This document shows, piece after piece, positions 20,006 to 30,231 of a stretch of 32,000 nt of DNA (its first letter is position 1; each line of letters opens with the position of its first letter). The notes under the pieces are model-generated. The model saw only the letters and a program-made list of their open reading frames with translations. It did not search any database and was not told the DNA's origin. Both the position numbers and the translations under genes were made by a program. This DNA comes from Candidatus Lokiarchaeum ossiferum (GTDB lineage Archaea > Asgardarchaeota > Lokiarchaeia > Sigyniarchaeales > Promethearchaeaceae): contig CP104013.1 of NCBI GenBank assembly GCA_025839675.1, positions 2,670,001 to 2,702,000 of the forward strand. The letters are read 5' to 3'.

Positions 20006-21136
20006 TTATTCTTCAAAAAGTTTCTTCTGAGATCTGAAAATTAAATATTCCAATTTAATTTCGTCATTTTGACCTTTGATTTGGCCTTGATCATCGAACC
20101 AGTCGGGATGTTTTTGAATTTCTTCAGCAATATCGTTTAATAAAAATTGCTCATCCCCTTTTAAAAATCCCAACGAAGTATCTAACGCCGGAGAAAAATT
20201 ATCAATATTCATGATCAAGAGATATCTTTGCCCAGACATCTCAAAGTTATTAAAAATAATGAAATCGTATCCTTTTTGTTTTGGTTTTCTGCATTTTATG
20301 TTTTGTAAAGTCAATTTTTGTTGTTCCACAAAACTTTTTAATACACTATAGGTCATACCTTCCAAACTTTGAGCTGTTTGATCTTCTTCTGTCCCCCAAC
20401 GTTCATATTCCCCATTAAGTGATGAATAGATTGGAGTGATTGGCATTCCATAGGAATTTACTAATTGAATTTCAAAGAATCGCATGATTTTTTCCCATTC
20501 AATTGAGGGATCATAGATCGAATCGGAACCAACATCAATAAATTTTGATGAAAAAGAAGGTGAAATTCCGGCTTTGAAAGAATCTGCTACAGATTTAAAT
20601 GCAGTTTGTAAATTTTCTTTAGTGCGCTTGGTCTCTAGTTGGTAATGTCTTTTCTTATCCTTTAAATAGTTCTGATAAAACGTAGCGATTTGTACATCAA
20701 CCCAATTTAGGTAAAATTCTGCCCCAGAGACATCTGAAAATTGCCCTTTCGACATCCGTTTAAAAAATTCCGCAAATATATGATGGGCATTCTTAACTGA
20801 GGCCGGCCAATCATATGGGTTAGTTTCCTGATATTCTGATACAGCTAAAATCCCAAAAAATCCTCCATGGATGAACTCCTTTTCAACATAATAATAGGAA
20901 TAGAGAGAACTATCAGGTAATCCTAGTTTAATCCGAATGATGTCTCGATTAGGAAAGGCAGAAATATAGTTTAAGAAAATATCTTCATGATCTTCGATAA
21001 TCTTCTCTTTAAATTGCCCATTTTCATATCTCCGATGAAACATGATATCTTGGTCCCCTTCAAGCGAACGAGCAAAAATTAAATCCCAAACGAGCATAAA
21101 TAAAATCCTTCCTTTTATATCATTAATTAATTCCAT
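20006..21136 (-). CDS. Hypothetical protein (376 aa), no recognised motif
   Basis: Long ATG-initiated ORF. Its stop lies 13 nt upstream of the GT4 ATG, so it is co-oriented and probably co-transcribed. No catalytic or binding motif recognised by eye. Confidence 0.7.
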   Translation of the reverse strand: MELINDIKGRILFMLVWDLIFARSLEGDQDIMFHRRYENGQFKEKIIEDHEDIFLNYISAFPNRDIIRIKLGLPDSSLYSYYYVEKEFIHGGFFGILAVSEYQETNPYDWPASVKNAHHIFAEFFKRMSKGQFSDVSGAEFYLNWVDVQIATFYQNYLKDKKRHYQLETKRTKENLQTAFKSVADSFKAGISPSFSSKFIDVGSDSIYDPSIEWEKIMRFFEIQLVNSYGMPITPIYSSLNGEYERWGTEEDQTAQSLEGMTYSVLKSFVEQQKLTLQNIKCRKPKQKGYDFIIFNNFEMSGQRYLLIMNIDNFSPALDTSLGFLKGDEQFLLNDIAEEIQKHPDWFDDQGQIKGQNDEIKLEYLIFRSQKKLFEE

Positions 21137-22700: not shown

Positions 22701-22715
22701 AAAGATACTCTTTTT
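22699..22715. terminator. Short perfect hairpin between convergent genes
   Basis: aaaaaga-tac-tcttttt (7-bp stem, 3-nt loop) spans the stop codons of the DHH gene (+) and the 7-TM gene (-). It is an AT-only stem and therefore weak. Confidence 0.25.
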
Positions 22716-23604
22716 AATCGTCGTCTTCAAGATCAGCAGCATAGAATTCCTGATAGCAATCAGGACACAATCCATGTGAAAATAATAATTCTGAATTCTT
22801 TAAAAAAAACGACTCAATTGGAAGCCATTCATCTTCCCCATCTCGGATTTGTTTGCAATGGGAACAAATAGGAAGTGTGTTTCCAATATTTTTTAGCTTA
22901 GCAGCTGTTTCTGATTGAATTAAGGAGTTGATCAATTTTGGTTCAAGATAAAAAGAGAAACTCACTAAAAAAGCCCCTGTTGCTAAGGTTACAAGCATTA
23001 ATCCAGGGATAGTTTTTGTTAGACGCGTTAAATACAAAATAAAAGCGAAAATACTAAAAAAAAACCCCCCAATTAATGTTATCGATGCTTTTTTTTTCAA
23101 ATTAGACGGAGATCGATAAAAAATTAGCAAACAATAATAGAAAAAGAGCATTGCAATTAATCCCGTAAAAATTGTCAGCCAAATATGAAAAGATCCGTTT
23201 GTTTGAAAACTTTCTGCCCCGGTTTTAAGAATGATGCTAATTGCGGCGTCTTCCTCAAAAGAACTTATCACAATTCCGGCCGTAAAAATACCAAAAACTA
23301 ACATTTTGATCGGATCTAATGAAGACCGAGTCAATTTATCAAATACAGAAACAAGAAAGAAAGAACTAATGATTAAGATAAAAATTTCAAAAATAAAAAG
23401 AGTTTTAGAAAGAATTAGCAAAGCAAACCCACCACCTACGATGTAGAAGAAAAGGGAAATCCATGAAAACATTAAAAATTTGTTAAAATCAGATTCAATC
23501 CGTTTATATTCGCGATACATTATAAAAGCACTCAATAAAGCAATCAGACTTGCCAAAAAATACATAATTACTTCAATATTCCAATTGAGTGAAAGTAAAA
23601 CCAT
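22714..23604 (-). CDS. 7-TM membrane protein with a C-terminal cytoplasmic four-Cys (CxxC...CPxC) module
   Basis: Seven ~20-aa hydrophobic segments by eye. The last 53 aa are LPICSHCKQIRDGEDEWLPIESFFLKNSELLFSHGLCPDCYQEFY + an acidic tail. The track start (23658) is a TTG; the first ATG is at 23604 (MVLLSLNWNIEV). Confidence 0.75.
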   Translation of the reverse strand: MVLLSLNWNIEVIMYFLASLIALLSAFIMYREYKRIESDFNKFLMFSWISLFFYIVGGGFALLILSKTLFIFEIFILIISSFFLVSVFDKLTRSSLDPIKMLVFGIFTAGIVISSFEEDAAISIILKTGAESFQTNGSFHIWLTIFTGLIAMLFFYYCLLIFYRSPSNLKKKASITLIGGFFFSIFAFILYLTRLTKTIPGLMLVTLATGAFLVSFSFYLEPKLINSLIQSETAAKLKNIGNTLPICSHCKQIRDGEDEWLPIESFFLKNSELLFSHGLCPDCYQEFYAADLEDDD

Positions 23605-23736
23605 AGCATCTAATCCTTTGCAACGAGCAATTTTTGTAAAATAATATTTATTGCTCAATTAAGTGATTATTCTTAATTAATCTAGTTACTAAATAATTCT
23701 TTTTTATTCTAACATTTGGGGAAATGGGAGATTTTT

Positions 23737-24912
23737 TCAAACATCCCACTTGCGAGTTTCGTCACCTTGAATTTTTTGAGTTGCGGAAGCATCTCCTCGA
23801 ATAGTTAATTGATTAATATCATCCGCTTGATTTAATAACAAATTGTACTGCTTCATCAAGCTATGATTTAATCGAAATTGCGTTGGATCATCAGAAAATT
23901 TAAGTTTTAGTTCTTTCTTTAACGTAAAAACAGAATCTCCCAGTTGTAAATTGAAATCCAAGATCGAGATCGGAGCAGTTGCGGATATCGCAGCAGGGTT
24001 AAAAAAATAATCAAGTTTTAGCATGAACTCATAAATTTCACCCGCTTCAAAGGGACGGAGCCATGCTTTCCAATTTTGACCAATTTTTTCAAAAGGAAAG
24101 CGAATCGTAGTAGGTTTGTGTTGAATTGCTTCATACATCTTACATGAACCGACTGTAGGAGTCATTAACAGAATGGGATTTGGATGAAGAATTTGCGTGG
24201 CTTGTTGAGTTAATATTTGGGATTTTGTTTCCAATTCAACCGCATCTTCAGCAAAAACAAATTTTCCTGTTGATTGAAGTGCAAAGTTATACATTAAGAG
24301 AACATTATGATCATTTCCAATACCAATGGAATCAATAGAGGCACCATATTCCTTTGCCATGTGAGCATATTCCATATAACGTTGAAACCGATTTTCATGA
24401 ATATCCTCAGAAGAACAACCCCAATCCGGTTGCCCATCACCCAATATTATGATTTTCTTCGTTAAAAGTAGACCATTATACAGTCTCAGTCGCTTCAATG
24501 CCAGATCAAGTGCATCGCGTAAAGGAGTACTCCCTTGAGGAATCAAATATTGGATAGAATTCAACAAATCTTGGCGAGATATGGCATTAATCTCTTTTTC
24601 ATCAATCACCACTTGAACTGGATCCCCAAATGTGATCAACGTAAAAATCGTGCCATCGGGTAAATTTCGAATTTGTTCCAATAAAGAAGAAATTGCAGCT
24701 TGATATTTATTATCGTCAAACATAGAATTTGATAAATCCAATAACCAGATCCCAAAAAAAGGTAGTCGAATTGTTTCTTTATTCGGAATTACCTTCAAAT
24801 TGATTGCGAGAGAAAGATGATCACTGCGAGGAGAACATGTAATAGATTGTAAGATATCAAGATGGGGAATATTGGAATTCATAGCAAGCACACGAAATCT
24901 GACTAATTTCAT
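23737..24912 (-). CDS. von Willebrand factor A (vWA) domain protein with an uncharacterised C-terminal half
   Basis: Intact MIDAS: LLDLSNSM (DxSxS), QGSTPL (Thr), ILGDGQPD (Asp). About 180 C-terminal aa are beta-rich with no motif recognised. Alternative ATG at 24882. Confidence 0.8.
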   Translation of the reverse strand: MKLVRFRVLAMNSNIPHLDILQSITCSPRSDHLSLAINLKVIPNKETIRLPFFGIWLLDLSNSMFDDNKYQAAISSLLEQIRNLPDGTIFTLITFGDPVQVVIDEKEINAISRQDLLNSIQYLIPQGSTPLRDALDLALKRLRLYNGLLLTKKIIILGDGQPDWGCSSEDIHENRFQRYMEYAHMAKEYGASIDSIGIGNDHNVLLMYNFALQSTGKFVFAEDAVELETKSQILTQQATQILHPNPILLMTPTVGSCKMYEAIQHKPTTIRFPFEKIGQNWKAWLRPFEAGEIYEFMLKLDYFFNPAAISATAPISILDFNLQLGDSVFTLKKELKLKFSDDPTQFRLNHSLMKQYNLLLNQADDINQLTIRGDASATQKIQGDETRKWDV

Positions 24913-24994
24913 CTTAAATTTTGTTTCTTATATGTTTTTATTTTTATGTAAACCTTTTTTTTTCTGTAAACATTTATGCATTTGGTTTCTTCTC
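24913..24994. promoter_or_regulatory. Divergent promoter region between the vWA gene and the ECF ATPase gene
   Basis: 82-bp AT-rich gap between divergent starts, with TATA-like tttttatttttatgtaaa. No experimental support. Confidence 0.3.
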
Positions 24995-26734
24995 ATGAAA
25001 GCACTGTTGGCAGATCAAATGACTTTTATCTACAAAAATGCTGAAACAAAGGCATTAGATAATATTTCCCTTGATATTGCTCCAGGAAAATTCATTTTAC
25101 TGTGTGGTCCAACCGGATCGGGAAAAACTTCTTTTATTAGGGCGATAAATGGGCTGATTCCTCATTTTTATCCGGGAAATTTCTATGGGTATTTTAAAGT
25201 CCTAAACCTTGATACGGTTGAATCGAGTCCTGCCCAACTTTCCACCAAAGTGGGTACAGTTTTCCAAATTCCAGAAAACCAGCTTTTTGCAATGGATGTG
25301 GAAAGGGAATTGGCTTTCGCATTGGAAAATCTAAATTTCAGCCGTGAAGAGATATCCAAGCGAATTGAAGCAGCAATTGAATTGACCAAGATCTCTCATT
25401 TGCGTCATAAAGCTCCTTATGAATTAAGTGGTGGAGAGCAACAAAAAATTGCCATCGCATCCCTCTTGGCTCTGAATCCAGATATCTTGGTTTTAGATGA
25501 ACCTTTGGCAAACTTGGATCCTTTTACAGCGAATCAAACCATAGCCCTTCTCAAAAATTTGCAACGACAAGAGCATAAAACCATCATTATTTCAGAACAT
25601 CGAATTGAATATGCACTCCCCTATGTGGATGAAATAATCATTGTCAAAGATGGAAAGCTTGTTAATCGAGGTACTACCCAACAGGTGTTAGATGATGACC
25701 GAATATATTCATTGGGACTCGATTTGCCTCCGTTGTTAACTTGGTTCAAACACTTAATAAATACGGGACAAATTCAAGGATCTGTCCCCTTTCAATTTAA
25801 AACACAAATAATACGAATAGAAGAATTTCTTAGTTCGAATCCTAGCGTATTAAAAAAACTGGCAAATAACAGCATGAATTTGAGCAGAGAAATTCACGAT
25901 ATCACATCCAAAATTCCTGAAATAATCTTTGACAATGTTTCCTTTGCCTATGATCAAAGCTCTGATCAAAAACCTGCCTTATCAAACTTATCCTTTTCTG
26001 TTATACCCGGCGAAATTCTTGGTGTTTTAGGGCCGAATGGAGCAGGAAAAAGCACAATGATTCGATGTATCAACGGTTTAATTAAGCCTGATTCTGGAAG
26101 TATATGGGTGAAGGGGCGTAATATAATTGATGTGCCTGTATATGATGTAGCACAAGAAGTTGGTGTGATGTTTCAAAATCCCGATCACCAATTGTTTTCT
26201 TCCACCGTTGAAGATGAACTCAAATTTTCCCTTAAAAATCTTAAATTGTCAAAAGAAACGAAGGCTAACCGGATTGAAAACTATTTAGATAAACTTGGAT
26301 TACTTCCTCTGCGAGATTTGTCACCTTTCAATATTTCAGGCGGTCAAAAAAAAAAAGTATCCTTAGCCTCTGTATTATGTCGTGAAACAGAAATTCTGGT
26401 GTTTGATGAACCCACTGTAGGCCAAGATGCGCAGCAAAAGAAAAAATTACACGAAATAATAAATATTGCTCATCAGAAAGGTCGGACGGTTCTTTTAATA
26501 TCCCATGATTTAGATTTCATTGCCCAAATTGCGACGAGAGTATTGGTTATGTCCCAAGGGACAATATTTTCAGAAGGAACCCCTAACAAAATTTTAACCA
26601 ATCAAAAAATTCTGGATCACTGTCGCTTGGGCAATCTTCCAATCACAACTGTTGCTGCAGCTTTGCATCAGAAATATCCCGTATTTCCTAGAGATTTGAC
26701 CACTCTGTTTGAATTGCAGGAGGCGTTTAAATAG
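24995..26734 (+). CDS. ECF-transporter fused duplicated ATPase (EcfA1-EcfA2/CbiO-like)
   Basis: Two ABC cassettes. Walker A: GPTGSGKTS and GPNGAGKST. Signature: LSGGEQQK and ISGGQKKK. Walker B: ILVLDEP and ILVFDEP. The 5' 41 codons of the track ORF overlap the vWA gene; ATG at 24995 (MKALLADQMTF) is chosen. Confidence 0.9.
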   Translation: MKALLADQMTFIYKNAETKALDNISLDIAPGKFILLCGPTGSGKTSFIRAINGLIPHFYPGNFYGYFKVLNLDTVESSPAQLSTKVGTVFQIPENQLFAMDVERELAFALENLNFSREEISKRIEAAIELTKISHLRHKAPYELSGGEQQKIAIASLLALNPDILVLDEPLANLDPFTANQTIALLKNLQRQEHKTIIISEHRIEYALPYVDEIIIVKDGKLVNRGTTQQVLDDDRIYSLGLDLPPLLTWFKHLINTGQIQGSVPFQFKTQIIRIEEFLSSNPSVLKKLANNSMNLSREIHDITSKIPEIIFDNVSFAYDQSSDQKPALSNLSFSVIPGEILGVLGPNGAGKSTMIRCINGLIKPDSGSIWVKGRNIIDVPVYDVAQEVGVMFQNPDHQLFSSTVEDELKFSLKNLKLSKETKANRIENYLDKLGLLPLRDLSPFNISGGQKKKVSLASVLCRETEILVFDEPTVGQDAQQKKKLHEIINIAHQKGRTVLLISHDLDFIAQIATRVLVMSQGTIFSEGTPNKILTNQKILDHCRLGNLPITTVAAALHQKYPVFPRDLTTLFELQEAFK

Positions 26735-27499
26735 ATGTCCATGGAATTCGCAAAAGTATTTAATTTTCTCCGAGGAACCACCCTAATTCATCAGATCGAT
26801 CCTCGTGCTAAAGGAATGATGATCCTATCCTATTCAGTTTTGGCGTTCGTTCTTAATGATTTTTGGTTGTTAATGGGATTATTCCTTCTCGCCCTCCCTC
26901 TGCTATTTATTGCCAAAATAGCCCCCCAATTCTTTCAAGGAATGAAAGGGTTATCAGTTTTGCTCTTTATTATTTTAATTATAAATACTTACGCAATTTC
27001 ATTTTACTCCGCTTTAACAGTCATCATGCGAATTCTCATCTTGATGATCGTATTTTCAACCTACTTTCAAACCACAATTCCAGAGGATATTACTCAAAGT
27101 TTAATAAAAGTAAAAGTTCCATATTCTATCGCCTATGCTTTATCGCTATCCTTTCGATTTGTGCCCACCATGGCAAAAGAAACAGAAATCATCTCCGAAG
27201 CTCAACTTTCACGGGGGCACAAACTAGAAGTAGGAGGGATGATCAATCAAATAAAAAATTTATTTCCCCTATTAATTCCCCTCCTAATGAGTTCTATCCG
27301 CAGAGCCTTTCATGTTGCAGAAGCTTTGGAAACTCGTGCATTTGGTGTGAAAAAGCATCCAAACTATTACTTCCCTTTAAAATTTAAGAAAATGGATTGG
27401 TGGGTAACTATATTTTATGTTGTTTTCTTAGCTGGTGTGATAGTGCTGTGGTCCACAGAATCTTTGAAAATTCCATCTTGGTTATTATTTTCTTTGTAA
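26735..27499 (+). CDS. ecfT: ECF-transporter transmembrane T component (EcfT/CbiQ family)
   Basis: Multi-TM 254-aa protein with coupling-helix motifs SEAQLSRGH and EALETRAFG. The ATG directly follows the ATPase stop, with GGAGG upstream (26719-26723). Confidence 0.85.
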   Translation: MSMEFAKVFNFLRGTTLIHQIDPRAKGMMILSYSVLAFVLNDFWLLMGLFLLALPLLFIAKIAPQFFQGMKGLSVLLFIILIINTYAISFYSALTVIMRILILMIVFSTYFQTTIPEDITQSLIKVKVPYSIAYALSLSFRFVPTMAKETEIISEAQLSRGHKLEVGGMINQIKNLFPLLIPLLMSSIRRAFHVAEALETRAFGVKKHPNYYFPLKFKKMDWWVTIFYVVFLAGVIVLWSTESLKIPSWLLFSL

Positions 27500-27504
27500 T
27501 AGGA

Positions 27505-28566
27505 CTAAACATCAATCCCATATTCTCGTTTTGCACATTCAGGACAAACACTATGAGTAAATTCCGCTTCAGAATGAGCACGTATATAATCTTCGATCTG
27601 ATTCCAATAACCCTGATCTGAACGAATTTTTTTGCAAAAACTACAAATTGGAAACATGCCTCTTAAAATGGAAACATTTTCCTCAGCTTCTTTTCTTTTA
27701 GTCACATCTCGGATACTTCCTCGATAGCCAAGAAATAGTCCTTCTTTATTATTGATACTAGTGCATAATATTTGGAGCCAATGAATTTCTCCCGATGGAT
27801 GTTTAGTTCGAATTTCTATGGGAAGTCCTGCATCGATTTGCAGTAAAAAAACTTTCCAATTTGAAAGATCATTTGGATGAATGATTCTTGTCATAAGATC
27901 ATAAAAATTAGAGACATTTTTTGAAAAATACCCACTAATTTTTTTACAAGATGGAGAATTATATTTAAACTTTCCATCTTTATCAAACCAAACTTCCCAA
28001 TCACTACTATGGTCAGCGACTATTTGAAAACGCTCTTGTTCTTTCCGAATTTGGGTGTTTAAATCAATGTTATTAAAAACATGACCCCAATATTTAGAGA
28101 GGAGCACTATCAGCTGTAAATATCGCTCATGAAATTCCGATTGATTAAAATTGGAAAACATAAGATACCCAACTAACTTATGATTAGATAGAACAGGGAG
28201 TATCAGATTAGTGTTAGAATCTATCCAAATATAAGTCTGATTTAACTCGGGGAGATCTTGTGGGAGAATTGAAACTTTTTTTGAAATGTTGTACATTTCT
28301 AAAGTGTATTCAATGATCTTATTTGCTTCATCTGTATCATTTCTGATATCAAAAAAATGGATTTTTTCGGGAGAAAAGAGAATATTAAAAAATTCAAGAC
28401 TTTTCTGAATCATTTTTTCCCTATCAGAAAAACTAAAGATTCTATTCATGAAATCCAAAATCAATCCAGTATCTGCATTTTTCCGATTTTCATTATCATT
28501 GGATTCAGCAATCTTAGAAATATTTGAATTATGTGAATGTTCCGTTGAGTGCACCTTCTTAATCAT
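27505..28566 (-). CDS. Cytoplasmic GAF-like + PAS sensor protein with a C-terminal four-Cys (CxxC...CPxC) module
   Basis: PAS-like core RFQIVADHSSDWEVWFDKDGKFKYNSPSCKKISGY...IHWLQILCTSINNKEGLFLGYRGSIRDVTKRKEAEE. Upstream GAF-like segment (LPVLSNHKLVGYLMFSN). Tail FPICSFCKKIRSDQGYWNQIEDYIRAHSEAEFTHSVCPECAKREY. The track start (28584) is a TTG; the ATG at 28566 overlaps the upstream stop by 8 nt. Confidence 0.75.
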   Translation of the reverse strand: MIKKVHSTEHSHNSNISKIAESNDNENRKNADTGLILDFMNRIFSFSDREKMIQKSLEFFNILFSPEKIHFFDIRNDTDEANKIIEYTLEMYNISKKVSILPQDLPELNQTYIWIDSNTNLILPVLSNHKLVGYLMFSNFNQSEFHERYLQLIVLLSKYWGHVFNNIDLNTQIRKEQERFQIVADHSSDWEVWFDKDGKFKYNSPSCKKISGYFSKNVSNFYDLMTRIIHPNDLSNWKVFLLQIDAGLPIEIRTKHPSGEIHWLQILCTSINNKEGLFLGYRGSIRDVTKRKEAEENVSILRGMFPICSFCKKIRSDQGYWNQIEDYIRAHSEAEFTHSVCPECAKREYGIDV

Positions 28567-29593
28567 ACCGCCCGTAAAGATCAATGGCTTTGGATATTCC
28601 TTCCATCACAACATTCGGTACAGCATAGGGTATTTCACCATGGTTATCAGCAATAATTGTTCTCCCATAAGGTTTTACTATATTGATCAGATTTTTGACA
28701 TGATCCATGGCATCTTCCTTGGTCCAATTGACCATATTGATTCCACTTAAATTCCCCAAAATCGAAGGTCCATTGGGATATTTTTGAATTAATTCTTTAA
28801 CATCATCTTGAGTGCTTACCCCTATTACTATTGGATTTAAACTGGAAACATCATTAAAAGTATTAGTTGTTCTTCCAGAAGCATAATGAATCGCAAACGG
28901 ACCATCAAACCCAGCAAAAGTCTCTTTGGCAACATCATACCCAAGTTTAAGATACATTTCTCGTGGAATCATATCAGTTGAGGACATGGGATCAAAGTAG
29001 ACAATAAAAGTTGCTCCAGCGGCAAGTTGAGCGTTAGCCCATTTTTTACAATATTCAATATTGATATGCATCAAGGTTTGAAATTCATCAGGTGAATTAT
29101 AGAGAAGTTCAATGTATTTATCAAACCCCATTTGAGTAATTGGGATAGAAAAAGGGGATAACACACCACCAATAATTGGCATTGTATCAGAATATTCGGA
29201 TTTAAGCCCTTTGATAACCTGCAATGTATTTTGATAACTTTCTATATGTTCAAAAGATGGAATTTCTAATGAATTAATCAATTCTTTATCAGCAAGGGGA
29301 GGGAGTCCGGTATTTGGAGGCCCATCAGCAAAATATATTACATCTCCTCCAAAGGCCTCGATTTCAAAAGCAAAATAATTAGCACCCATTACCGCATCAT
29401 GCTGATACTTGTTTTGTAGAATTTTTTGACCTTTAATAACATTAACAGGATTTGCGTAGTAATCCTTTATACTTAAGTTAAGTTCTTTGGCCCCATGATG
29501 TGTTAAAGTCAGAATAAAGGGAATGCGATCCACTTTCTTGTGAGATAATGTATTCAATATTCGTTCCATAGAATTAAGGGTATCTTTTTTCAT
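28559..29593 (-). CDS. Uroporphyrinogen-decarboxylase-fold methyltransferase (MtaA/MtbA/CmuA-like, corrinoid-dependent MT2 type)
   Basis: N-terminus MKKDTLNSMERILNTLSHKKVDRIPF... and an overall URO-D-like layout. ATG at 29593 is preceded by GGAGG (7-nt spacer) and overlaps the corrinoid-protein stop as ATGA. Confidence 0.75.
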   Translation of the reverse strand: MKKDTLNSMERILNTLSHKKVDRIPFILTLTHHGAKELNLSIKDYYANPVNVIKGQKILQNKYQHDAVMGANYFAFEIEAFGGDVIYFADGPPNTGLPPLADKELINSLEIPSFEHIESYQNTLQVIKGLKSEYSDTMPIIGGVLSPFSIPITQMGFDKYIELLYNSPDEFQTLMHINIEYCKKWANAQLAAGATFIVYFDPMSSTDMIPREMYLKLGYDVAKETFAGFDGPFAIHYASGRTTNTFNDVSSLNPIVIGVSTQDDVKELIQKYPNGPSILGNLSGINMVNWTKEDAMDHVKNLINIVKPYGRTIIADNHGEIPYAVPNVVMEGISKAIDLYGRYD

Positions 29594-30231
29594 TGTTGTT
29601 CCTCCAAAAATTTCTCTACAATCGGAATAGATTTGCTTGCAGTTGATGCTGTTGCATTTGCACCGACTTTTAACCATAACTTTGGATCTATATTAAAGGG
29701 GGCACCTCCAACAATAACACGAGTTTTTAGTTGTAAATCCTTAAGTTTTTTAATTAGTAACTCAATTTTCAAAGCAGAGTGAAGCATTAAGGTAGAAATC
29801 ATTAGAATTTCACATCGATCTCTTTGGACATATTGTACAAGATTTTCTACAGAAACACCGATTCCATAATCAATAACGTTATACCCAGATAACTTCAAAA
29901 TCGATATGAGCATCTTTGCACCCAAAAAATGATAATCTTCCAACACCACTACATATATAGGCCCTTTTTTAGTTTGGTTTGTGAAATTATTAGGCAAAAA
30001 TTCATCTAATATATCATTACACAACATTCCAGCCATATAGACTTGAGAAAGAGCGACATCCCCCGTTTCCCACAGATCTCCAATCCTTTTTTGACTTTCA
30101 ATTAAAATTCGCTCATTTCCAGAAAATTCAGATGAATTTGGGGACAGGGAAGCTTTAAAAATATTTTTTACTAAATCAATATCCAAATTAATAAGAGCTT
30201 GTGTAAGATCTGAAATCACCTGTTCTTGCAT
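29590..30231 (-). CDS. Corrinoid (cobalamin-binding) protein, MtaC/MtbC-like
   Basis: B12-binding DxHxxG motif (EDYHFLGAKM) with downstream MISTLML (SxL) and VIVGGAPF (GG). N-terminal helical cap domain (RIGDLWETGDVALSQVYMAG). Confidence 0.85.
   Translation of the reverse strand: MQEQVISDLTQALINLDIDLVKNIFKASLSPNSSEFSGNERILIESQKRIGDLWETGDVALSQVYMAGMLCNDILDEFLPNNFTNQTKKGPIYVVVLEDYHFLGAKMLISILKLSGYNVIDYGIGVSVENLVQYVQRDRCEILMISTLMLHSALKIELLIKKLKDLQLKTRVIVGGAPFNIDPKLWLKVGANATASTASKSIPIVEKFLEEQQ

Follow-up and report, generated by a model that had tools for sequence, protein, structure and literature searches.

Two Lokiarchaeum sensor proteins share a four-cysteine tail from a very large, apparently unannotated family of putative signalling output modules

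Why do two otherwise unrelated sensor-type proteins of an Asgard archaeon end in the same small four-cysteine (Cys4) tail, and what would such a tail do? The question arises from a stretch of 32,000 nt of Candidatus Lokiarchaeum ossiferum (assembly GCA_025839675.1, contig CP104013.1, positions 2,670,001 to 2,702,000; hereafter the window), in which an earlier note, made from the letters of the DNA, had described a common ungapped C-terminal module in a seven-transmembrane (7TM) protein and a PAS-domain protein. BLASTP comparison of the 7TM protein with the PAS protein returned this tail as the sole significant similarity (residues 263–310 versus 312–359), with 20 of 47 residues identical (42%), no gaps and E=4e-12, and thereby confirmed the description. 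A six-frame scan of the window found exactly two CxxCKxIR...CxxC modules (22756–22872 and 27535–27651). At the DNA level the two tails agree at 75 of 141 nt (53%), and only 12 of the 20 identical residues share their codon. A recent duplication is therefore excluded, in agreement with the proposal that a protein module is shared while the DNA is not repeated. That the resemblance reflects chance or an annotation artefact has next to no probability: the short length of the match alone favours such a reading, which is refuted by the E value of the pair and by the thousands of homologues with the same invariant columns recovered by profile searching, and conserved orthologues exist for both genes. 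Both tails of the window belong to a family of putative signalling output modules that is very large and, as it seems, unannotated.

The extent of this family was evaluated with a profile (hidden Markov model, HMM) search of 1.84 billion cluster representatives (clusters at 50% identity), which gave 2,908 clusters at E<=1e-30, 20,375 at E<=1e-10 and at least 24,576 at E<=1e-3. Most of the family is bacterial, and its size is 20,000 clusters or more. A 58-residue tail query returned matches only at 60–76% identity, and bacterial tails are 60–75% identical to the archaeal one; the near-identical tails mentioned earlier on bacterial PAS and receiver proteins do exist. A pattern scan with one genome per species confirmed at least 592 tail loci among the 600 stretches listed, and the matches listed came from Thermodesulfobacteriota, Nitrospirota, Acidobacteriota, Spirochaetota, Verrucomicrobiota, KSB1, Bacteroidota, Gemmatimonadota, Clostridia, Chromatiaceae and others. 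Most carrier taxa are anaerobes or sediment organisms, as is the Lokiarchaeal host.

Alignment of 388 distinct cores of 39 residues revealed zero indels, with the distance from the second to the third Cys being 29 residues in 388 of 388. The family consensus reads LxGxLPICxxCKKIRDDxGYWNQIExYIxxHSEAEFSHGICPECxKKxYP, and about 25 of the 39 core positions are at least 85% conserved. The positions singled out earlier from the two window tails (PICxxCKxIR, W, IE, SE, F[ST]H, CPxC and Y) turned out to be invariant or near-invariant columns of this wider family. Conservation of the four Cys in homologues had been named as a test of the whole idea; no variation occurs in the core at Cys3, Cys6, Cys36 and Cys39 or at one His, and divergent members, the Lokiarchaeial 7TM subfamily included, retain the four Cys, the His, W and E.

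On plasmids, a single tail remnant was found in 72,556 records. It lies, unannotated, on plasmid NZ_CP028898.1 of Dongshaea marina (L085, 4001–4141), where an IS21 transposase flanks it on one side and an IS91 transposase on the other; part of a GAF domain is found some 2.6 kb upstream. The remnant looks like a sensor-tail gene disrupted by an insertion sequence.

Neither window tail matched a family in Pfam-A (2025 copy, E<=0.1) or NCBIfam 20.0 (E<=1), whether Rubredoxin, HalOD2, zf-HC2, DksA C4, the zinc_ribbon families or any other, and a Pfam scan of 78 genomic members and 147 representatives from the search found no family common to the tails beyond the N-terminal domains. Sub-threshold Pfam echoes on the tail were limited to zf-C4pol (3/147) and Zn_ribbon_HMPTM (1/147), both of them C4 zinc fingers. 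The PDB, searched by single sequence and by profile, gave no tail match, only chance-level hits to a glycerophosphotransferase and a glutamate dehydrogenase. No description of the module was found in the full-text literature, where subscription journals lay outside coverage and a prior description is possible. The statement that no characterised domain or function was known for the tail therefore held across Pfam-A, NCBIfam, the PDB and the full-text literature.

The place of the tail within its proteins points to an output role. We surveyed about 290 full-length members (the 78 genomic members, the 147 representatives and 65 relatives of the window PAS protein), a sample of high scorers based on the 150 top hits of the HMM search and the 80 top loci. 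The tail was C-terminal in 77 of the 78 genomic members, with 7–39 residues after the last Cys. PAS (26), REC (18) and HAMP (6) were the leading partners in this set, accompanied by GAF, Cache, MASE6, MASE11, VUPS, Tll0287-like, hemerythrin and periplasmic binding domains. The 147 representatives carried PAS (66), MASE6 (21), REC (7), HAMP (4), PocR (3) and GAF (3), as well as CHASE, SBP and Cache; the 65 relatives had the same kinds of domains, and Reg_prop was also found among the partners across the three sets. None of the roughly 290 members contained HisKA/HATPase, GGDEF, EAL, HD-GYP, chemoreceptor (MCPsignal) or helix-turn-helix (HTH) domains. Fusion to sensor domains, another test set by the earlier note, was consistent throughout, since only input or receiver partners were present. 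The tail shows features of an output domain: it lies C-terminal to input or receiver domains, it is mutually exclusive with other outputs in this sample, and it follows a helical linker of conserved register. Many members span the membrane several times, and only about 15 residues separate the core from the last transmembrane (TM) helix.

Compared with classical outputs such as HisKA/DHp, GGDEF and HTH, the tail is alike in its place C-terminal to PAS, HAMP, GAF, REC and membrane sensors, in its quantised coiled-coil linker, in its exclusion of other outputs and in the occurrence of REC-tail genes beside histidine kinases. It differs in having a core of 39 residues, no recognisable catalytic or DNA-binding fold and a predicted four-Cys metal site.

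The linker itself was measured from the end motif of the PAS domain (D-I-T-x-R-K) to the PIC of the core. Its length was 27 aa in 80 of 86 proteins, a share possibly inflated because the search profile covered part of the linker, and 13 aa in 5 of 86, the window PAS protein among them; the two classes differ by two heptads. A third class of 38 aa (P0293–P0295 and P0299) lies 11 residues above the main one. The segment before PIC is conserved as E.E...LI.EL..AL..VK.L.G.L, with hydrophobic positions at -18, -15, -11, -8, -5 and -2/-1 and a maximum periodicity of 3.5 residues. Such quantised helical linkers are a hallmark of dimeric sensor-effector coupling, as in the linkers of PAS-kinases and PAS-cyclases.

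Other arrangements were also observed. Five proteins carry two modules (P0121, P0122, P0125, P0130 and P0142), four of them as a tandem of two membrane sensor-helix-tail units and one as REC-helix-tail-tail; these may be fused paralogues or intramolecular pseudo-dimers. In a contig of the Syntrophobacteraceae (L024:1122-2348) the tail is followed by a hemerythrin domain (PF01814, 5e-24), the only clear domain found C-terminal to a tail.

On the whole, we judge it fairly probable that the tail works as a dimeric output module, that it binds a metal ion, probably zinc, and that the common target on which it acts is encoded separately. The module of about 65 residues would consist of a short coiled-coil helix, L..AL..VK.L.G.L, and the 39-residue core, PIC-x2-CKKIRDD-G-W-(..)-E-(..)-HSEAEF[ST]H-x2-CP-x-C, and would form the effector end of one-component sensors and response regulators. 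Dimeric sensor domains, here a 7TM membrane domain and a cytoplasmic PAS domain, would send their state along a rigid helix of fixed register; the presentation of the two terminal Cys4 units would change accordingly, and this change would gate binding to the common target encoded elsewhere. Metal binding, dimer geometry, output role and shared target are all points that we infer. A specific conserved binding surface is suggested by the many non-Cys, probably surface, residues that are near-invariant and by the variety of sensors that end in one and the same tail, and the target would more likely be a protein or a small ligand than DNA.

A different possibility is that the tail is itself an input: a Cys4(+His) centre that senses oxidants or the state of metal supply, built either as a thiol/zinc redox switch or as a rubredoxin-like site of the Fe(Cys)4 or Fe-S kind. 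The invariance of four Cys and one His, the CxxC-x29-CPxC spacing equal to that of rubredoxin, the hemerythrin domain beside the tail in one member and the mostly anaerobic or sediment habit of carriers and host are in keeping with this, as are the top structural echoes of the tail model, the Zn(Cys)4 sites of PerR, Fur and Zur, one of which is termed a "structural redox switch". Such an input would nevertheless leave hundreds of surveyed proteins without any output domain. In REC-tail proteins encoded beside kinases the tail occupies the classical output position, and about 25 near-invariant non-Cys, probably surface, positions (KKIRDD.GYW.Q.E.Y..HSEAEF) exceed what a metal site needs. We regard the input role as doubtful, and equally doubtful its corollary that these proteins act through oligomerisation or through their other domains.

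Nucleic-acid binding was weighed in the same way. On this account the tail is a zinc finger, and its carriers are one-component regulators of transcription or RNA and DNA-binding response regulators. C4 zinc fingers often bind nucleic acids, a basic KKIR patch immediately follows the first knuckle, and the absence of any conserved neighbour would fit global regulators. A precedent is HalOD2, an output of halobacterial response regulators with two CXXC motifs 20–25 residues apart, which is predicted to bind zinc and has been proposed to bind DNA or RNA (Galperin et al. 2018, PMC5847659). The cores are, however, acidic (mean net charge -1.9, range -6 to +2, in the 388 distinct cores), and many members are polytopic membrane proteins with the short spacing from TM helix to core given above; acidity and frequent membrane anchoring through very short linkers together argue against DNA binding. 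No HTH-like or other known DNA-binding fold was recovered by the PDB profile search or by Foldseek. A nucleic-acid finger is thus unlikely. The tail resembles HalOD2 as a REC-associated C-terminal output with two conserved CXXC motifs, whereas HalOD2 has a HalX-like helical N-terminal part and occurs only in a few halobacteria; the constant spacing of 29, the bacterial and Lokiarchaeial spread and the absence of any Pfam match, also to the HalOD2 model, ruled out identity of the two. TackOD1, which turned up in the literature, also differs from the tail, and motifs of the cyclic di-GMP type and of anti-sigma factors (HxxxCxxC) were dropped, as they did not fit the invariant columns.

We then considered the fold of the putative output module. 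The AlphaFold2 (AF2) model of the tail, with a predicted local distance difference test (pLDDT) of 78, runs from a strand into the first CxxC knuckle, through a hairpin, a helix and a second strand, to the CPxC that opens a terminal helix. Foldseek comparison of the model with the PDB and BFVD gave nothing significant. The best PDB matches, all non-significant, were the Zn(Cys)4 dimerisation domains of PerR, Fur and Zur (E=0.5–5), and Nmd3 and PHD fingers came later; in BFVD the best viral match had E=0.09, and papillomavirus E6/E7 had E=3.5–5. The tail has the two CxxC knuckles at constant spacing, with invariant Cys, that mark zinc-ribbon or rubredoxin-type sites, and these knuckles most likely hold one metal ion, probably zinc. 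Of the earlier suggestion of a zinc-ribbon-like output of one-component signalling, the output architecture was upheld, while the preference for zinc over iron was not established.

Several small Cys4 domains invite comparison. Rubredoxin has the spacing CxxC-x29-CPxC, with CPxC as its second knuckle, and CR3 of papillomavirus E7 is a C-terminal dimerising zinc domain. The CxxC-x29-CxxC motif is also known as the tetracysteine motif of the type II secretion system ATPase EpsE (PMC5061722) and from the zinc domains of papillomavirus E6/E7. The tail shares with such C4 pairs the two CxxC knuckles 29 residues apart, the second being CPxC, and differs from rubredoxin and zinc-ribbon types in matching none of their Pfam HMMs, in giving no significant structural match, in its two-helix predicted model and in the many invariant non-Cys residues unique to its family. 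Fur, PerR and Zur likewise carry a CxxC...CxxC site in a small alpha/beta dimerisation unit. Their matches have template modelling scores of about 0.3–0.4 and a root-mean-square deviation of about 9 Å, with no sequence similarity to the tail, and the effector of Fur proteins is a separate winged-helix DNA-binding domain, which tail proteins lack.

These resemblances bear on one more reading, in which the tail is a structural dimerisation cap, comparable to the Zn(Cys)4 unit of the Fur family or to E7 CR3, that locks the sensor dimer while signalling proceeds by other means. The terminal position on a coiled coil, the tandem tail-tail proteins, which suggest contacts between tails, and the weak Foldseek echoes to Fur/PerR dimerisation domains and E6/E7 would suit a cap. 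A purely structural cap, however, would not normally keep 60–75% identity from archaea to many bacterial phyla without a single indel, and the proteins would still be without an output. We hold a mere cap to be very improbable. None of the three alternatives, redox/metal centre, dimerisation cap or nucleic-acid finger, explains the total lack of other outputs as well.

The search for a partner or target of the proposed output module covered 78 bacterial loci, with four genes on each side and all-against-all clustering, and yielded no recurrent family except PAS and REC proteins. When 67 genes lying on the same strand and no more than 150 nt from a tail gene were compared with Pfam, HisKA/HATPase (7), REC (6) and PAS (8) were the only families to recur. 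The histidine-kinase and receiver neighbours are ordinary two-component context. Stand-alone small tails, followed as a clue to a partner, stood in unrelated contexts or beside transposases. As no neighbour family was conserved in the 78 loci, a shared target would be remote.

Several observations weigh against a zinc-binding output module with a common target. The census was skewed to high scorers, and the frequency of the 27-aa linker may be overstated for the reason given above. A few members break strict C-terminality, and short stand-alone tails exist, several of which resemble remnants beside transposases. Iron is possible, because the spacing CxxC-x29-CPxC equals that of rubredoxin, and "zinc ribbon" or "treble clef" is a description of the model rather than a classification, because no fold match was significant. 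Finally, no partner, ligand or activity emerged, and the putative output role follows from domain architecture.

If the proposal is correct, the tail could be a major uncharacterised output branch, in which sensors of the PAS, REC, HAMP and membrane types, tens of thousands in all, converge through one nearly invariant, metal-binding mini-domain on a single target or ligand; we would put this broader claim somewhat below an even chance. That target would have to be conserved well enough to occur both in many bacterial phyla, most of them anaerobic, and in Lokiarchaeia, an Asgard lineage that is syntrophic with such bacteria. The output domain determines what a sensory protein does, and the catalogue of such domains (kinase, cyclase/phosphodiesterase, DNA-binding, chemoreceptor and so on) tends to be regarded as nearly complete. 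At present, tail carriers bear no more specific label than "PAS domain protein", "response regulator" or "hypothetical"; a name for the module and a known target would give a function to a large group of signalling proteins of sulfate reducers, Nitrospirota, Acidobacteriota, spirochaetes and Asgard archaea. The corrinoid/methyltransferase operon of Lokiarchaeum offers a concrete physiological entry point, and the size of about 65 residues makes the question directly testable.

Table 1. Features of the two tail genes and of their neighbourhood in the window.
Feature	Position in window	Strand	Basis or remark
Cys4 core of 7TM protein, PICSHCKQIRDGEDEWLPIESFFLKNSELLFSHGLCPDC	22756..22872	-	invariant columns kept in 12 Lokiarchaeial orthologues
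Short helical connector from last TM helix to tail (..SETAAKLKNIGNTL)	22873..22920	-	aligns with family helix L..AL..VK.L.G.L
Membrane sensor region, seven hydrophobic helices	22945..23577	-	Kyte-Doolittle scan, 7 distinct segments
7TM-sensor protein with Cys4 tail, NEF87_002261	22714..23604	-	exact sequence deposited for Ca. Lokiarchaeum ossiferum
vWA-domain protein, upstream of 7TM-tail gene	23737..24882	-	PF00092 1e-10; 132-nt separation
Fused energy-coupling factor (ECF) A1A2 ATPase	24995..26734	+	ABC_tran x2; start fixed by 579-aa homologue in L091
ECF T component (CbiQ-type)	26735..27499	+	CbiQ Pfam match
PAS-sensor protein with Cys4 tail, NEF87_002265, 353 aa	27505..28566	-	start from orthologues and deposited annotation
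Cys4 core of PAS protein, PICSFCKKIRSDQGYWNQIEDYIRAHSEAEFTHSVCPEC	27535..27651	-	60-75% identical to bacterial tails; AF2 pLDDT 78
13-residue helical linker EAEENVSILRGMF, PAS end motif DVTKRK to PIC	27652..27690	-	linker census, heptad periodicity
PAS domain	27676..28044	-	TIGR00229 1.7e-12 (residues 181-303), PF08447 1.9e-6; AF2 pLDDT 85-93
N-terminal region of PAS protein, no assigned family, alpha/beta sensor-like pattern	28087..28437	-	AF2 pLDDT 40-66
MtaA-like (URO-D family) methyltransferase	28559..29593	-	PF01208 1.5e-42; syntenic in related contig L091
Corrinoid (B12-binding) protein, first gene of its operon	29590..30231	-	PF02310 and PF02607
Neighbouring prefoldin, NEF87_002259			matches deposited protein

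Turning to the two genes themselves, the likely start of the 7TM-tail gene is the ATG at 23604, giving 296 aa, and the longest open reading frame (ORF) begins at a TTG at 23658; the orthologues in Lokiarchaeia all begin MVLL.LNWN. The seven hydrophobic segments are in keeping with the 7TM label. UniRef names the protein "histidine kinase N-terminal 7TM region", and hmmscan gave no such Pfam match at E<=0.1. For the PAS-tail gene, the longest start proposed by the ORF lister is 28584 and the likely start is 28566. Orthologues and deposited annotation place the probable starts of the vWA, ECF ATPase and MtaA-like genes at 24882, 24995 and 29593. Its product had been labelled GAF-PAS: the PAS part was confirmed (TIGR00229), and the GAF part was not verified, as residues 1–180 matched neither Pfam nor NCBIfam and the region was modelled at low confidence, in the order helix, five strands, helix.

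The identities assigned earlier to the vWA, ECF, MtaA-like and corrinoid neighbours were all supported by Pfam. The MtaA-like gene begins within the end of the corrinoid gene, where start and stop codon share the letters ATGA (29590–29593), and its own stop overlaps the PAS-tail start by 8 nt (28559–28566, ATGATTAA). Because these stop and start codons overlap, corrinoid, MtaA-like and PAS-tail genes form a tight operon, and the overlaps indicate translational coupling of the methyl-transfer pair with the sensor gene. The same arrangement is present in the related contig L091. The PAS-tail protein may report on or tune the methyl-transfer system, a link limited to the genus.

Each tail gene had also been described as the last of its transcription unit. 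This stands for the corrinoid, MtaA-like and PAS-tail genes and is unproven for vWA and 7TM-tail, which are separated by 132 AT-rich nt. This spacer (23605–23736), 5' of the 7TM-tail gene, contains a TATA-like stretch, AATAAATATTATTTT; instead of sharing a transcript with vWA, the gene may be expressed from an archaeal promoter of its own.

The two ECF genes (24995..27499, plus strand) sit between the two tail genes on the minus strand, so the flanking arrangement noted before is real, and the whole arrangement of the window is kept in one close relative (about 75–80% protein identity). A functional meaning of it is not supported beyond the genus. The 7TM-tail orthologues of Prometheoarchaeum syntrophicum, which belong to the same Lokiarchaeial 7TM subfamily, and of two other Lokiarchaeial contigs have other neighbours, including a major facilitator superfamily (MFS) transporter, and the pairing of vWA with 7TM-tail was absent from the Prometheoarchaeum and other Lokiarchaeial orthologue loci examined. 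The neighbourhood was accordingly rejected as a functional signal, and bracketing of the ECF genes, as a genus-level arrangement, is no evidence of a functional system. The neighbourhood thus carries little weight, except for the tight corrinoid/MtaA-like/PAS-tail operon in Lokiarchaeum.

Two minor observations concern further ORFs of the window. A 174-aa ORF (26863–27387, plus strand) lies wholly within the CbiQ gene in another frame and is almost certainly spurious. A 376-aa protein, for whose counterpart in L091 no Pfam family is on record, adjoins a glycosyltransferase in both Lokiarchaeum contigs (window 20006–21136, minus strand; L091 16475–17578).

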